Source: an uncultured delta proteobacterium
Lineage (GTDB): Bacteria; Myxococcota_A; Polyangia; Polyangiales; Polyangiaceae
Direction: 5' to 3'
Assembly: GCA_963716725.1 (NCBI GenBank)
Contig: CAVQUB010000015.1
Location: 32,001-96,000 of the forward strand
Length of the DNA: 64,000 nt
Every line of letters starts with the position of its first letter. The first letter of the stretch is position 1. Under the pieces are notes generated by a model. It saw only the letters and a list, made by a program, of their open reading frames with translations. It did not search any database and had not been told where the DNA came from. Both the position numbers and the translations under genes were made by a program. This document shows, one piece after another, positions 46,065 through 52,396 of this stretch.

Positions 46065-47492
46065 ATGCTCGATCGCTGGGAACCCGTCATCGGACTCGAG
46101 GTCCACGCCCAGCTCCTGACGGAGACGAAGCTGTTCTGCGGCTGCGCGATGCGCTTCGGCGAGGAGCCGAACCGAAACGTGTGTCCCGTCTGCTTGGGTT
46201 TGCCGGGCGCGCTGCCCGTGCTCAACCGTCGGGCGGTCGAGCTGGCCGTGCGCGCGGCGTCGGCCCTCGACTGCACGGTGCACGAGCGCAGCGTCTTCGA
46301 GCGCAAGAACTACTTCTACCCGGATCTGCCCAAGGGGTACCAGCTGAGCCAGTACGCGGCGCCCCTCGCGACCCGCGGACACCTGGATGTCGAGCTGGAC
46401 GGCGTCCTGAAGCGAGCGGGCATCACCCGGGTGCACATGGAAGAGGACGCCGGCAAGAACGTGCACGGCGTGGGGGGTGACTCGCTGGTCGATCTGAATC
46501 GCGCCGGGACGCCCTTGATCGAGATCGTGGGCGATCCGGATCTCGGCAGCGCCGCCGAAGCATCGGCCTACCTCCGCGCCCTGCGCGACGTGTTGATCTT
46601 CATCCGCGTGAACGACGGAAACCTGGAGGAGGGTAGCTTTCGCTGCGACGCGAACGTCTCGGTGCGTCGGGTGGGGGAGTCGCAACTGGGGACGCGGACC
46701 GAGATCAAGAACGTCAACAGCTTTCGCTTCGTGCAGCGAGCCATCGAGCTCGAGATCAGTCGGCAGGTTGCGATCCTCGAGAGCGGCGGGCGCATCGTGC
46801 AGGAGACTCGCGGCTTCGATCACGAGGCAGGTCGCACCTATTCGCTGCGCTCGAAAGGAGATGCGCACGACTACCGCTACTTCCCAGATCCGGATCTGCC
46901 GCCCTTGTTCGTGGACGCCGCCCTCCGCACCCAAACACTGCCGGAGCTGCCGGCGGCGAAGCGCCTGCGCTACCAGGCCCTGGGACTTCCGACCCAGGCG
47001 GCCCAGACCCTGACAAGTCACCCGGAAATCGCGCGCTTCTTCGAGGACACCTCGAGTCGCTATCCGGACGCGGTGAAGGCCGCGAACTTCATCCAGACCG
47101 AGGTGCTCCGGGACGCGAAGCTCCGGGGCCTCCGCGCGAGCTTCAGCGTCACGCCCGAGCAAGTCGCGGAGCTGCTTGCGCTGACTGACGCCGGCAAGAT
47201 CAGCGGCAAGCAGGCCAAGGAGGTCCTGGCCGTCATGATCGAGAGCGGCAGCATGCCGAGCGCCATCGTGGCCGAGCGCGGCCTGGCGGTGGTCTCCGAC
47301 GAGAGCCAGCTGTTGCCGATCTGCCAGCGGCTGATCGCGGATCACCCCAAGCAGGTCGAGCAGGTGCGTCAGGGCAAGAAGGGCATGATCGGATTCTTCG
47401 TCGGGCAGGTCATGAAACAGACCGGCGGCGCCGCGGATCCCAAGCTGGTCAACGCCCTGCTCGAGAAGCTGATGGCCGAGGAGAAGAGCTGA
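46065..47492 (+). CDS. gatB: Asp-tRNA(Asn)/Glu-tRNA(Gln) amidotransferase subunit B
   Basis: [49 protein letters not shown] and FFVGQVMK. Confidence 0.97.
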
Positions 47493-48533
47493 TGCCCGTC
47501 CCGCATGCCGAACCCCTGTCTGGCGCGAGCTACTCCGCCGTCGAGCTCTGCCCTGACAACGACGCCGTGCTGATGCTCGATCAGCGCCGTCTGCCGGGCG
47601 AGGAGATCTACGAGCGGCTCACGACCTCGTCCGAGGTGGCGCGGGGGATCACCGACATGGTGGTCCGCGGCGCTCCGGCCATCGGCGTCGCGGCGGCGTA
47701 TGGCATGGTGCTTGCGGCCCGGAGGTCCGCGAGCATCGACGAGCTGCGCGCGTTGGCGGGCGAGCTCCGGCGGGCGCGCCCCACTGCGGTGAACCTGATG
47801 TGGGCCGTGGATCGCATGCTGGCCCTGGCGGAGCTTGGCGCCGACGCCACCGCGCTGGCGGCCGAAGCCCGGGCCATCCATCGAGACGACGTCGCCGCGT
47901 GTCGACGCATGGGCGCGCTGGGAGCCGAGCGCGTGCCCGACGGCGCGACCATCCTCACGCACTGCAACGCCGGAGCGCTCGCCACCGGCGGCTTTGGCTC
48001 GGCCCTCGGCGTGATCCGCGCCGCGGTCGAGGCGGGCAAGAGCGTGCGCGTGCTCGCCGACGAGACCCGGCCCTACCTCCAGGGCCTGCGGCTCACGGCG
48101 TGGGAGCTCCATCAGGACGACATCCCGGTGGAGATCCTGACTGACGGGATGGCTGGCTGGTTCTTCTCCAAAGGCGCCATCGATCTGGTGGTGGTCGGCT
48201 CGGACCGCATCGCGAGGAACGGCGACGTCGCCAACAAGATCGGGACGTACTCGGTGGCCTGCCTCGCCCGCCTACACGATCGCCCCTTCTACGTGGCGGC
48301 GCCGTGGTCCACCGTCGATCTCGAGCTGCCCGACCGGCGACGAGATCCCGATCGAAGAGCGCAGCATCACGGAGATCACGCACTTCGGCGGTCGTCGCAT
48401 CGCGCCCGAGGGCGTTGGCGCAAGGAACCCCGGCTTCGACGTCACGCCGGCGCGACTGGTCAGCGCCATCTTCACCGAGCGCGGCGTGATCGATCCGGTG
48501 GGCGAGGTCGGCGTGGCGGCGCTCGCCCGCTGA
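47492..48533 (+). CDS. mtnA: S-methyl-5-thioribose-1-phosphate isomerase; frameshift at about 48332
   Basis: [41 protein letters not shown] and NKIGTY, then IPIEER...NPGFDVTP...TERG in the next frame. Confidence 0.95.
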
Positions 48534-48613
48534 GAGGTCGGCGCTCGCTGCTCAGCCCGCGCCCCGAGGCCCCGAATTGCGAGGGCTGGCGGCTTGATGT
48601 ATCAGGTGGAGGC

Positions 48614-49291
48614 ATGCCGCCTCGCGCCGCCTTCGTGACCCTGCCCGCGTTGATCGGGCTCGGGGTGCTGTTCGCCGCGGGCTGTGAGCCCAAGCGATCC
48701 GCCGACGGACAGAGGGCGTCAGCCTCCCCGTCCTCGCTTGCGGCCCCGTCGGCCAGCGCGGTCGCGAAGTCGCCCTTCCCACCGGAGGCGCGGCGCGACT
48801 CGCCTCCGAAGGCCATCGCGGAGAGTGCGCTCGCTTTGGGTCGGGTGGCTCCGCCGCTCGCTGGGCTGCCGTCAACAGCGGGAACTTGGAGCCGCGCTTC
48901 GAAAGTGACGGCGCTGGTCTTTTACCGGGGTCACTGGTGACCCTACTGTCGCCGGCAGCTCGGGGAGCTGCAGAGTCAACGCGGAGAGTTCGAGAAGCGC
49001 GGCGCTGAGTTGGTCGCGCTCAGCGTGGATCCGGTCGACGTCAGCAAGGAGCTGGCGGAGCGGGAGAAGCTCTCTCTGACGCTGCTCTCCGATCCGGACC
49101 GCAGAGTGATCAAGGCATTCGGGCTCGACGATCCGGGCAACGAGGTCTCATGGCCCGCGGTGTACGTGATCGGCGCCGACGGAACCGTGGTCTATCGTGC
49201 GTTTCTCGAGTCGTACAAACAACGCCCTGCCGTGGCCGAGATCCTGGCCGCCGTCGATCGTGCGGCGCCGAGCGAAGGCGGCCCACGCTGA
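48614..49291 (+). CDS. Selenocysteine-containing AhpC/TSA (peroxiredoxin-like) redoxin lipoprotein; Sec codon TGA at 48938-48940
   Basis: SD ggagg and lipobox FAAGC; the frame reads [22 protein letters not shown] and continues with VALSVD, LLSDPD and [10 protein letters not shown]. Confidence 0.88.
48955..48971 (+). promoter_or_regulatory. Putative bacterial SECIS hairpin
   Basis: GCAGCTC-GGG-GAGCTGC is a perfect 7-bp stem with a G loop starting 22 nt after the UGA. Confidence 0.75.
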
Positions 49292-49308
49292 ACGCGCAGC
49301 CATGAGCT

Positions 49309-50451
49309 TCAGCGCGTCGGGGGCGGGCGGCAGCTGAAGCCATTTTCCAGCGACAGCGACTCGACAGCACCGGCCGGTCTTTCGGCCGTCGCGCCTTCGC
49401 GAGGCACCCACACTCGCGCGTCGGCCCAGCGCAGGTCGAGCTCGCGCCAGGCTGCCATGTCGCCGATCTCGACGTGCACCGTCCTGTTGAGAGCGTGTCG
49501 CAGCACGCCAATGACCTCTCCCCAGGGCTCGCTGTACAGGCACGCGCCGCGCGGGAAAGTCAGGGTCTCCTCGGGTGGATTCTTGCGGGCACCGTAGCCG
49601 AAGCCGCCACTGCCCCAACCCATCGATTGGGGTTGGGATAGCGCGGACTTGGGCACGAACCCCCGCACCGACAGCGTCGACGAGCCGTAGGCGATCTCCA
49701 CGAACCAAGCCGCGCTCTTCGCCACGGTCCCGACTCGCACCTGGGGTGGCGCAGTGTCGACGAGCTTTCCGAGCGCGGATCCCCCGGGGCGCTCGAGCAC
49801 ATTCGAGAGGGGCGCCAATACCCACTCCTCGGTTCCCGGCGCTTCGGGGATTGGAGAGGGCAAGTAGGCGTGGCCGATCGCGCTGATGGGCAGCCAGCCG
49901 ACGGCCTCGAAGGTGCGGTCGCTGGCGGAGACCCGAGCCAAGTCACCCTTGTCGTTCAGGCGTTGGAGGAAAGCGCCGGGACCCACGCGCACGCGCTCGT
50001 TCGGCCCTGCTTTGACCGGTTGGCGCGTGAGCGGCGTCACGCGGAGCGGGGTCGGCCAGAGCTTGGTGTTCTCGGTCCAGAGCAAGACCCGCAGTGAAGG
50101 GTCGTCGAAGATGATGCGGGTGCGTCCTGGGGACTGGTCCACGACCACTCGAGGGGGCGCGCGGCCGAGCCCGGCGTACGGGAGCGCGCGTTCGACGAAG
50201 CGGGCCTCGAAGCCGTCGCGGAGCAGCGCTGCGGCAGGCGGAACGTTCGATGCAGGTGCGCGGTCGGCCGCGCTCGCGTCAACCACCGTCGCCGACGCTG
50301 ACGCCGCGATTGACGACGCGGTTGCCACCGTCGGCTCCGGTCGGGGGGCGGTTGGCCCGGGAGCGGCGGTCCCGCAGGCCCACAGACCCGAGCTGGACGC
50401 GACGAGAGCCGAGACCACGGCCCGCCAGCTCGCAGCGCGAGTTTGCAGCAT
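49309..50451 (-). CDS. Hypothetical exported protein or lipoprotein with beta-rich (SH3-like) repeats
   Basis: LWAC lipobox-like motif, Pro/Ala linker, and recurring V.G(W/F)(L/V)P units. Confidence 0.65.
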   Translation of the reverse strand: MLQTRAASWRAVVSALVASSSGLWACGTAAPGPTAPRPEPTVATASSIAASASATVVDASAADRAPASNVPPAAALLRDGFEARFVERALPYAGLGRAPPRVVVDQSPGRTRIIFDDPSLRVLLWTENTKLWPTPLRVTPLTRQPVKAGPNERVRVGPGAFLQRLNDKGDLARVSASDRTFEAVGWLPISAIGHAYLPSPIPEAPGTEEWVLAPLSNVLERPGGSALGKLVDTAPPQVRVGTVAKSAAWFVEIAYGSSTLSVRGFVPKSALSQPQSMGWGSGGFGYGARKNPPEETLTFPRGACLYSEPWGEVIGVLRHALNRTVHVEIGDMAAWRELDLRWADARVWVPREGATAERPAGAVESLSLENGFSCRPPPTR

Positions 50452-50554
50452 GCGCGTCACCCTAGCTCATCTTGCGCGGGTCCGAGCCGAGACAGCGACG
50501 CCACGGTCGTGGTCCTCGACACCCTACCGATTGCCAAGCTATCTTCGAAAGTGG

Positions 50555-52396
50555 ATGCTCAGGCTTCTTCGCCTCGTCGGGTTGCTCGTCGTCGGCGTTC
50601 CGCCGCTGTGGCTCGGGGGAGCTTGTTCGTTGCTGTCGGATCTGACACTCTACGGGACGACACCGGCGGCGCCGCAGACTCTGGGAGCAGCGACAGCGGC
50701 ACGAACGACGGTGGCGGGTGCAAGCCGAAGACCTGGCAGCGCGCTGGGTGCGCTGTGCGGAGAAGCGCTGGATGGTTGTGGCGGCAAGCTCAGCTGCGGC
50801 GAGTGCCCCGGCGGGCTGTTCTGCGGCGGAGCCGGGCCCAACAAATGCGGGCAGACGCCCTGCCTCTCCAAGAGCTGCCAAGACTTGTCCGCCGAGTGCG
50901 GCCTCGCGTCGGATGGATGTGGCAAGGTGCAAGAGTGCGGTGGCTGCACCTCCCCGCAGACCTGCGGGGGCAGTGGGACGGCCAACGTCTGCGGCTGCAC
51001 GCCTGTCGCCTGCGAGAGCGTCAAGGCCAACTGCGGCGAACTCTCGGACGGCTGCGGGGTCAAGCTGAACTGTGGGACCTGTCAGCCGCCAAACACCTGC
51101 GGCGGCGGGGGCCCGGCCAACCACTGCGGTTGCACGCCGAAGTCCTGCTCTAGCCTCGGCGCGAACTGCGGCAAGCTGCCCGACGGTTGTGGCGGGCTCG
51201 TCGACTGCGGCAGCTGTCCGACCGGCGAACTCTGCGGCGGAGGCGGCGCCAACAAGTGCGGGACGGCGCCCTGCCAAGGGAAGAGCTGCGCGGATCAGGG
51301 CAAGAACTGCGGTCAGATCTCGGACGGCTGCGGCAAGACGCTGAGCTGCGGGTCTTGCTCGGGATCGCAGCTCTGCGGCGGCTCCGGGAGCGCGAACGTT
51401 TGCGGGTGCACGCCCACGACCTGTGCTGCTGAAGGCAAGAACTGCGGTGACATCAGCGACAAATGCGGTGGATCCCTGAGTTGCGGCGGGTGCAGCCCTC
51501 CCAATAGCTGCGGAGGCGGCGGAGCTCCCAATGTCTGCGGTTGTTCCCCGCAGAGCTGCAACTCGCAGGGCAAGGACTGCGGCACTATCAACAATGGCTG
51601 CGGTGGTACGGTCAACTGCGGCGCCTGCAGCGCCCCGCAGAGCTGCGGGGGAGGCGGGACCCCGAACGTATGCGGGTGCTCGGCGACCACTTGCGCGGCT
51701 CAGGGCTACGCGTGCGGAAGTATCGGCAACGGTTGCGGTGGAACGCTCAACTGCGGCAGCTGCGGAGCGAACCAGCAGTGCGTCGGAGGCAGCTGTCAGA
51801 CCACCTGTCACAGCTGTGCTTCCCTGGGTAAGAATTGCGGGACAGTCTCGGATGGCTGCTCCGGTGTGCTGGACTGCGGCAACTGCCAAGGCCCGGAATG
51901 GTGCGGCGGCGGCGGTTCCGCCAATGTCTGCGGTTGTTCCGCGCCGAGCTGCGCGGGCAAGTGCGGCGTCATCCCGAACCCCTGCGGCGGCAGCGTGAAC
52001 TGCGGTAGCTGCCCGGGCGGGCAGAGCTGTTACAACGGCTCGTGTTGCGCGCCGACCAGCTGCGGCGCTCAGGGCAAGAACTGCGGCACCATTGCCGACG
52101 GCTGCGGCGGCCAGCTCAACTGCGGCACCTGCTACGGCAATCAGGGCTGCTCGTACACCAACACCTGCGGTTTCGCTGGGCTCGGCGCCTGCGATGGCTG
52201 CCCTCCGACCTGGGACACCGTGTTTGTCGAGTCCTGCGCGTCCGGCTGCACCAGCGGACAGGAATCGCTCTGCGTCCAAGCAGGATACGACTCCTGGGCT
52301 GGCTGCGGCAGTTGCCCTGGCGGATACCACGAGGCCGCCTCGAGCTACGCGCCCTGCAGTTGCGGTGGGTACGCGGTGCTCTGCTTGCGGGACTGA
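50555..52396 (+). CDS. Cys-rich repeat surface protein; probably two compensating frameshifts near 50650-50740
   Basis: About ten C.P..C...G.NCG...DGCGG...CG.C modules; a natural linker (DSGSSDSGTNDGGGCKPKT) appears in another frame. Confidence 0.85.
   Translation: MLRLLRLVGLLVVGVPPLWLGGACSLLSDLTLYGTTPAAPQTLGAATAARTTVAGASRRPGSALGALCGEALDGCGGKLSCGECPGGLFCGGAGPNKCGQTPCLSKSCQDLSAECGLASDGCGKVQECGGCTSPQTCGGSGTANVCGCTPVACESVKANCGELSDGCGVKLNCGTCQPPNTCGGGGPANHCGCTPKSCSSLGANCGKLPDGCGGLVDCGSCPTGELCGGGGANKCGTAPCQGKSCADQGKNCGQISDGCGKTLSCGSCSGSQLCGGSGSANVCGCTPTTCAAEGKNCGDISDKCGGSLSCGGCSPPNSCGGGGAPNVCGCSPQSCNSQGKDCGTINNGCGGTVNCGACSAPQSCGGGGTPNVCGCSATTCAAQGYACGSIGNGCGGTLNCGSCGANQQCVGGSCQTTCHSCASLGKNCGTVSDGCSGVLDCGNCQGPEWCGGGGSANVCGCSAPSCAGKCGVIPNPCGGSVNCGSCPGGQSCYNGSCCAPTSCGAQGKNCGTIADGCGGQLNCGTCYGNQGCSYTNTCGFAGLGACDGCPPTWDTVFVESCASGCTSGQESLCVQAGYDSWAGCGSCPGGYHEAASSYAPCSCGGYAVLCLRD

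Follow-up and report, generated by a model that had tools for sequence, protein, structure and literature searches.

A 64,000-nucleotide stretch of DNA from an uncultured bacterium of the Polyangiaceae (contig CAVQUB010000015.1, positions 32,001 to 96,000; hereafter the window) contains what is very probably, judging from sequence comparisons, a single intact gene for a selenoprotein, in which a TGA codon specifies selenocysteine (Sec, U) in the active site of a redoxin. An original prediction, made from the letters of this DNA, had proposed such a hidden Sec protein, and the proposal is supported by the pairing of Sec and Cys in homologues, by a conserved hairpin downstream of the codon, by the Sec machinery of the host genome and by independent contigs. 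The TGA, at 48938-48940 on the forward strand, is the sole interruption of a 225-codon frame that runs from the ATG at 48614 to a TGA at 49289-49291. A mechanical list of open reading frames (ORFs) breaks at this codon, with a first ORF ending at 48940 and a TTG-started ORF of 93 amino acids (aa) at 49010-49291, and, as had been noticed, the frame continues past the break as an AhpC/TSA fold. When the TGA is read as U, the 225-residue product contains FYRGHW-U-PYC, and the Pfam domain AhpC-TSA (PF00578) extends across U109 (residues 97-194, E-value 7.2e-26, 91 bits versus a cut-off of 26); Redoxin (PF08534) also matches the read-through product (E-value 6.8e-15). The AhpC-TSA domain thus spans the TGA, and neither half is the whole domain.

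Selenocysteine and cysteine at one column

Cys/Sec pairing at the TGA had been put forward as the feature to look for in an alignment of homologues, and we found it: of the loci checked, 52 have TGA at the homologous column and 76 have Cys, as do 27 database proteins. The TGA loci belong mostly to the same class as the window, the named relatives being metagenome-assembled genomes (MAGs) of Polyangiaceae and Myxococcales. Genomes were searched in six frames, reading through stops, in a first set of 61 relatives and a second set of 301 sampled genomes of the class. In the first set 25 genomes matched at an E-value of 1e-8 or better, with one TGA inside each of the five best foreign matches (73-38% identity), and in the second set 83 of 301 genomes matched at 1e-15 or better, most of the approximately 140 matches being flagged with one TGA. 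Such a flag alone is not proof of a Sec column, since one locus flagged with one TGA (L071) has Cys at the column. The column was verified in 49 Sec forms from the class and relative searches, out of these approximately 140 matches plus the relatives. A script run over 58 loci (L021-L078) returned 29 with TGA at W-U-[P/T]-x-C, 10 with Cys and 19 more distant ones without a motif match, and each of the 20 further copies fetched from eight multi-match genomes has TGA at the column, so that single genomes hold up to four verified Sec copies (G347, G243).

Named genome records gave 74 loci, comprising three with TGA (two Polyangiaceae/Myxococcales-labelled MAGs and one Chloroflexota MAG), 66 with Cys (65 CxxC and one CxxS) and five without a match, a scan that is biased towards Cys because one search pattern ended in a Cys codon. 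The closest named relatives, MAGs labelled Polyangiaceae and Myxococcales, are 71-72% identical to the product described here. The full-length database homologues examined read W-C-P-x-C, the best of them being 46% identical and bearing the source name 'peroxiredoxin', and all 27 database homologues in an alignment of 81 sequences have Cys at the column. The only invariant columns of this alignment are R105, position 109 (U or C) and C112. In a tree of the 81 sequences (152 columns, quick search), Sec and Cys forms are interleaved, with a minimum of seven changes between them, two of which are forced by well-supported branches; the domain is too short to order these conversions, and we therefore make no claim on their direction.

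Outside the class of the window, the Chloroflexota MAG carries a Sec form reading VFYRGDW-U-PYC (L088:6135). A separate clade of Sec paralogues has the motif W-U-P-A-C-N (L155, L157, and also L160, L168, L170 and L172), and two of its members, L155 and L157, end in a Cys-rich C-terminal tail (...CCPGSCTDKICE...). At L161 and L164 the Sec-form frame stays open to the end of the fetched stretch (324 and 321 aa, respectively) and may hold a C-terminal extension, and the products of L162 and L165, which have no obvious signal peptide, may be cytoplasmic.

The recurrence of the codon bears on the possibility of a pseudogene, in which a nonsense mutation would have disabled an ordinary gene for a CxxC redoxin and left nothing functional past residue 108. 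ORF callers do stop at the TGA, and public protein sets hold the two halves only. Nevertheless, the TGA lies at the same column in all the checked Sec loci, from many genera and with conserved open downstream frames; the 49 verified Sec-form loci are free of frameshifts, and their downstream frame closes with a stop in all but L161 and L164, where it extends to the end of the locus. A nonsense mutation would neither recur at one column nor preserve the downstream half, and the conserved hairpin with its compensatory changes and the presence of Sec machinery, both described below, also speak against decay, which we regard as extremely improbable. A different decoding of UGA (with Trp or Cys inserted by near-cognate read-through, or under a reassigned code), or the use of the two halves as separate proteins, is very unlikely as well. 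The downstream 93-aa ORF with its TTG start does exist, but it has neither the active site nor a signal peptide, and neither the Pfam domain nor the modelled fold is complete without both halves; moreover, the column aligns with Cys, not with Trp or Gly, and the gene itself and several relatives end in TGA, which is thus a stop in these genomes.

The search of the genome for selA, selB, selC and selD that the original prediction had called for found all of them. In the genome of the window (7.9 Mb, 35 contigs, 84% complete), the tRNA-Sec scores 70.3 bits against a gathering score of 47 and is identified by ARAGORN as SeC with anticodon tca, selA scores 467 bits (versus 268), selB, which adjoins the tRNA-Sec gene, 281 bits (versus 242) and selD 302 bits (versus 125). 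The selD gene holds an in-frame TGA of its own near the N-terminus (GGG-U-ARK; L017:1531-1533, G000:C6), at what we take to be the catalytic Cys/Sec position of SelD, with an 8-bp hairpin and a GUC loop 27 nt downstream of this UGA, the same design as that of the redoxin hairpin. Across the class, selA was detected in 173 of the 301 genomes and in 78 of the 83 with a redoxin match; two of the five redoxin-match genomes without selA (G144 and G333) have verified Cys forms. The selA, selB and tRNA-Sec genes of the host lie within 12 kb of one contig (G000:C32:262008-273859), where selB and the tRNA-Sec gene are divergent neighbours approximately 280 nt apart.

The accuracy of the codon itself was assessed with contigs from four public runs of four studies (X1, X2, X7 and X10), compared over 48200-49300. 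The original prediction had pointed to 48940 as the base to inspect, and there the X1 contig (48248-49300) and the X2 contig (48640-49300), which are contigs and not raw reads, carry TGA rather than TGC or TGT, without any difference at 48938-48940; the coverage of the X7 and X10 contigs excludes the codon. As one of the runs may be the source sample, the agreement of X1 and X2 should be counted as one independent confirmation at minimum, and not as two. The same comparison touched the upstream mtnA gene (47492-48534, forward strand, Pfam IF-2B), whose sequence in the window falls into two frames: base 48322 is absent from the X1, X2 and X10 contigs, and a single frame results when it is removed. 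The extra base, which leaves the redoxin gene untouched, probably reflects either a strain difference or an assembly error of one base. Such an apparent single-base error nearby lends some substance to the idea that the TGA is itself an error of sequencing or assembly, the true codon being TGC or TGT, but contigs from two studies agree at the site, even if one may be the source sample, and 51 further loci, from other genomes, have TGA at the column, which leaves this explanation with a negligible probability.

The hairpin downstream of the UGA

The original prediction had also described a G-loop hairpin resembling a selenocysteine insertion sequence (SECIS) shortly after the UGA, and its presence is confirmed both in the sequence and in the minimum-free-energy (MFE) fold of the region. 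It occupies 48955-48971 and is made up of a perfect stem of 7 bp capped by a GGG loop; the hairpin starts 14 nt and the loop 21 nt after the UGA, and the hairpin folds alone with -10.1 kcal/mol. According to a recent review, the consensus bacterial SECIS (bSECIS) has an apical loop of 3-9 nt with a G among its first two nucleotides (usually as GG or GU), an upper stem of 4-16 bp, a distance of 16-37 nt from the UGA to the loop and an MFE of -7.5 kcal/mol or lower (PMC13188914). The hairpin described here conforms to each of these published rules (3-nt GGG loop, 7 bp, 21 nt, -10.1 kcal/mol). A perfect hairpin of at least 7 bp that follows the SECIS rules for loop and spacing lies behind 15 of the 1232 TGA triplets (1.2%) counted by script in the window, on both strands and in any frame. 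Taken by itself, this one sequence is no more than suggestive, and the evidential weight lies in its conservation across relatives.

For covariation, 29 Sec forms were aligned from one codon before the TGA. The helix columns are paired in 93.1% of the cells, compared with 15-59% when the 3' partners are slid by one to three columns; three of the seven pairs change on both sides, in 11 cells, and none of 500 shuffles matches either the observed covariation score or the share of paired cells. The closing pair changes from G-C to C-G in five sequences and to U-A in one, CAG...CTG becomes CAA...TTG in four sequences, with all four CAA codons opposite TTG, and CTC...GAG becomes CTG...CAG in three; pairing is also kept in the AUA...GAU and UGG...CUG variants of the further copies. 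The choice of Leu codons fits the pairing of the stem, the first Leu being encoded by CTC in 24 of the 29 sequences and the second by CTG or TTG in 27. In the Cys forms, 63% of the cells are paired at the same columns. These compensatory changes, together with the agreement with the published bSECIS rules, support the interpretation of the hairpin as a bSECIS.

Several observations weigh against a Sec-decoding gene, or at least temper the evidence for it. The local folding energy is not exceptional in comparison with dinucleotide shuffles (z 0.01 and z 0.60), and a scan of 48600-49300 against Rfam, with E-values up to 10, returned chance-level matches only (miRNA, the CRISPR direct repeat family CRISPR-DR and long non-coding RNA), far below gathering scores. 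The stem sits in the codons of a conserved QLG(E/Q)L peptide, and part of the conservation of the hairpin could therefore be at the protein level. Two Cys forms with the motif W-C-G-F-C (L060:1696-1746 and L068:1705-1755) retain a hairpin of 6-7 bp; these hairpins may be relics of a former Sec codon. No selA was seen in three genomes with a TGA-flagged match (G221, G293 and G303, which are 86, 96 and 88% complete, respectively), the flag referring to the match and not to the column. The one-base error approximately 600 nt upstream indicates that the accuracy of the assembly is imperfect. No NCBIfam model reaches its cut-off, the best being SelL_rel_redox (NF040769) with 48.7 bits versus 120, and no conserved neighbour points to a partner or a substrate.

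Fold, active site and export

The AlphaFold (AF2) model, built from the 81-sequence alignment, has a mean predicted local distance difference test score (pLDDT) of 88.1 and a predicted template modelling score (pTM) of 0.76, with a helix that begins at residue 110, directly after U109. A Foldseek search of this model against the PDB returned peroxiredoxins throughout the listed ranks, among the best Bcp4 (3hjp_A, E-value 4.8e-14, template modelling score normalized by target, TM, 0.86), AhpE (TM by target 0.88-0.89) and Prx6, and the model thus has a peroxiredoxin fold. The best PDB sequence match is Bcp (2cx3, E-value 1.6e-11), and in the HMMER alignment with this protein U109 corresponds to the Ser of F-S-P-V-C, C112 to the peroxidatic Cys and Pro181 to the catalytic Arg. 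The peroxiredoxin motif is PxxxTxxC, with Pro seven residues before the peroxidatic Cys. Here, the invariant Arg105 lies seven residues before C112, at the position of this Pro, giving R-x-x-x-U-x-x-C; PxxxT/SxxC is absent, the family consensus at the Pro181 site is xPAVxV, and the catalytic Arg before the ...FxID strand is not kept. Pro181, before the strand that faces the motif, is presumably the cis-Pro of the thioredoxin fold. Taken as sequence features, R-x-x-x-U-x-x-C and the conserved Pro resemble thioredoxin-type oxidoreductases more closely than peroxidases.

If the product is a genuine selenoprotein, thiol-disulfide exchange is the moderately probable main chemistry. A true envelope peroxidase, in which Sec109 or Cys112 would reduce peroxides and the UxxC would act as a resolving couple, is possible but rather unlikely, and would leave the selenoprotein assignment the same. 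In its favour are the peroxiredoxin fold, with Bcp4, AhpE and Prx6 as top structural matches and Bcp 2cx3 as the best sequence match in the PDB, the location of C112 at the position of the peroxidatic Cys, and the source name 'peroxiredoxin' of Cys homologues. Such names, however, are automatic, Arg105, Sec109 and Pro181 stand where peroxiredoxins have their other three active-site residues (Pro, Thr/Ser and Arg, respectively), and the W-[C/U]-P-x-C found throughout the family, where a helix begins, is a thioredoxin-type motif. The BCP/PrxQ, AhpE and Prx6 peroxiredoxins (3hjp, 2cx3, 5c04 and 2v2g) share with the redoxin the fold (TM by target 0.86-0.89) and the Cys at the peroxidatic position, and differ from it in those three residues and in its thioredoxin-like W-U-P-x-C.

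With thiol-disulfide exchange as the main chemistry, the following sequence of events may be envisaged. SelB carrying Sec-tRNA(Sec) would bind the mRNA hairpin at 48955-48971 when the ribosome meets the UGA at 48938-48940, selenocysteine would be inserted as residue 109, and translation would proceed to the stop at 49289-49291. The precursor would be exported, lipidated at Cys24 and anchored in the envelope. There, the selenolate of U109, at the N-terminus of the helix, would attack a disulfide, sulfenate or peroxide substrate, C112 would resolve the adduct to give a Sec109-Cys112 selenenylsulfide, and an envelope thiol reductant would restore the enzyme. Overall, the protein would act as an envelope selenol/thiol-disulfide oxidoreductase, for which peroxide would still be a possible substrate.

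The lipobox pattern is [LVI..][ASTG][GAS]-C, and the FAAGC sequence that the original prediction took for a lipoprotein signal is indeed present, with Cys24 encoded at 48683-48685. By eye, 27 of the 29 Sec forms, and also Cys forms, show at the matching place a hydrophobic stretch that runs into a small residue followed by Cys; the exceptions and oddities are L025, with an anchor that looks uncleaved, L078, which lacks the Cys, and L024, with an odd Asp at -1. It is probable that the product is exported and attached to the cell envelope by a lipid at Cys24. A motif of the linker that separates the lipobox from the redoxin domain, PPEARR(D/N)SPP, recurs in close Sec forms (L022, L051-L059, L061 and L062); in the AF2 model it forms a block (residues 55-65, pLDDT 89-96) that is placed against the domain with high confidence. 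The features of the gene are collected in Table 1.

Table 1. Features of the predicted selenoprotein gene, in window coordinates.
Feature	Position	Strand	Evidence
Predicted selenoprotein gene; precursor of a putative lipoprotein with an AhpC/TSA-fold redoxin domain	48614..49291	+	Frame, Pfam across the TGA, homology through the TGA in relatives
Predicted signal peptide, residues 1-24, with lipobox-like end ...LFAAG-C24	48614..48685	+	Translation; 27 of 29 Sec-form relatives comparable, by eye
Conserved linker motif, residues 55-65	48776..48808	+	Recurs in close Sec forms; pLDDT 89-96
AhpC/TSA (peroxiredoxin-fold) domain, residues 97-194	48902..49195	+	PF00578, PF08534, AF2 model, Foldseek
UGA very probably read as selenocysteine, U109	48938..48940	+	Sec/Cys column pairing; same TGA in X1 and X2 contigs
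Predicted redox motif U109-P-Y-C112 (UxxC), after invariant R105	48938..48949	+	81-sequence alignment; modelled helix from residue 110
Putative SECIS hairpin, 7-bp stem and GGG loop, inside the R-QLGEL-Q codons	48955..48971	+	Fold, published rules, covariation
True stop codon TGA	49289..49291	+	Frame

The surroundings of the gene were surveyed with Pfam in 115 flanking open frames from 29 Sec-form loci, taking the two longest per side within approximately 1.5 kb. No family recurs among these 115 frames, except Peptidase_S49 and RCC1 in the near-identical loci L065, L066 and L077; a pyridine-nucleotide disulfide oxidoreductase lies upstream in one of the 29 loci (L061), and the survey found no cytochrome-maturation or DsbD/CcdA gene adjoining the redoxin gene. 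The redoxin gene of the window is accompanied by gatB, mtnA and a gene for a protein of 383 aa without a Pfam match. Further downstream, an 836-aa open frame (49886-52396, forward strand) has a hydrophobic N-terminal segment and many Cys-rich repeats of approximately 45 residues (C-G-x-x-x-D-G-C-G-G-x-L-x-C-G-x-C), and the flank of L051 gives matches to DUF4215 and to the Dicty_CTDC repeat.

Known families, annotation and significance

By its features, the product is a member of the known 'Prx-like thiol:disulfide oxidoreductase' selenoproteins (PF00578, UxxC), and the type of enzyme it appears to represent is already known. UxxC redoxins of the AhpC/TSA type have been catalogued as a bacterial selenoprotein family since 2005-2008 (PMC1794560; PMC2398784; PMC13188914). 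A bacterial survey of 2006 lists eight sequences of the 'Prx-like thiol:disulfide oxidoreductase', in Geobacter, Syntrophus and Desulfotalea (PMC1794560), the Global Ocean Sampling (GOS) survey reports 225 sequences of 'Prx-like 1' (pfam00578, UxxC) with 2,740 Cys homologues (PMC2398784), a survey of 2016 counts 32 genes of the Prx-like family in 28 organisms (PMC5029168), and the 2026 review describes the family as 'predicted with high confidence' (PF00578, UxxC/UxxU; PMC13188914). Shared with Prx-like 1 are PF00578, a UxxC with Sec at the first Cys of CxxC, abundant CxxC homologues, a bSECIS directly downstream and, as far as those surveys name their organisms, hosts in the former Deltaproteobacteria. 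Four features of the Prx-like family are present here (PF00578, UxxC/Cys pairing, a bSECIS and selA-D), the likeness being judged by features and not by a reference sequence. Different from Prx-like 1 are the predicted lipoprotein nature of the product with its PPEARR(D/N)SPP linker and the number of copies, with as many as four verified Sec copies in one genome of this class, compared with the 32 genes in 28 organisms counted in that survey (PMC5029168).

Other exported redoxins are less close. TlpA, ResA and CcmG, like the protein described here, for which export is predicted, are exported and membrane-anchored and have a W-C-x-x-C-type motif and a conserved Pro before the strand that faces it, and ResA shows weak sequence similarity (PDB 3c71, E-value 9.7e-6). 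The models for this group, however, were missed (NF002854, 33.1 bits versus 170; Thioredoxin_8, PF13905, 23.3 versus 27), and the structures closest to the redoxin in the Foldseek search are peroxiredoxins instead. The SelL-related proteins (NF040769), the best NCBIfam match, and eukaryotic SelL are also Prx-like and have the redox pair at the same place; membership in the SelL-related family was rejected on the score given above, which comes from residues 96-173 only.

The expectation that standard gene callers would miss the selenoprotein is borne out by the public protein collection, which holds the gene only as an N-terminal half of 108 aa and a C-terminal half of 93 aa. A relative in a Myxococcales MAG (on a contig of 599,095 bases) is split in the same way, under the NCBI names 'hypothetical protein' (105 aa) and 'peroxiredoxin family protein' (103 aa), and a database protein of 142 aa represents the N-terminal half of a relative, with a start that precedes the aligned Met by 36 residues and with ...FYRGHW as its exact end. 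Because the gene and dozens of relatives are annotated in two pieces, the size of the selenoproteome and the redox capacity of the envelope are undercounted in the class.

Our knowledge of Sec decoding and of the enzyme class is unchanged by these results. The several Sec paralogues per genome, their distinct clades and the uniformly split public annotation seem to go slightly beyond the catalogue, and the hairpins of the 29 aligned Sec forms, with 20 more fetched, constitute a clean SECIS training set for high-GC genomes. A literature search, judged by the titles listed, found no paper on selenoproteins of Myxococcota or Polyangia, although the supplementary tables of surveys may list such genes. 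A selenoenzyme that is predicted to be exported and lipid-anchored is added to this bacterial group. More tentatively, we hypothesize that exported Sec-redoxin lipoproteins have radiated specifically within the Polyangia (Myxococcota), giving several distinct paralogue clades (one with the Cys-rich C-terminal tail and another apparently without a signal peptide), up to four verified Sec copies in a genome, a SECIS hard-wired in the QLG(E/Q)L block, and an RxxxUxxC-plus-Pro subclass distinct from both peroxiredoxins and TlpA-type reductases. If this hypothesis, which we hold to be somewhat doubtful, were true, redox reactions in the envelope of these soil and wastewater bacteria would routinely involve selenium.

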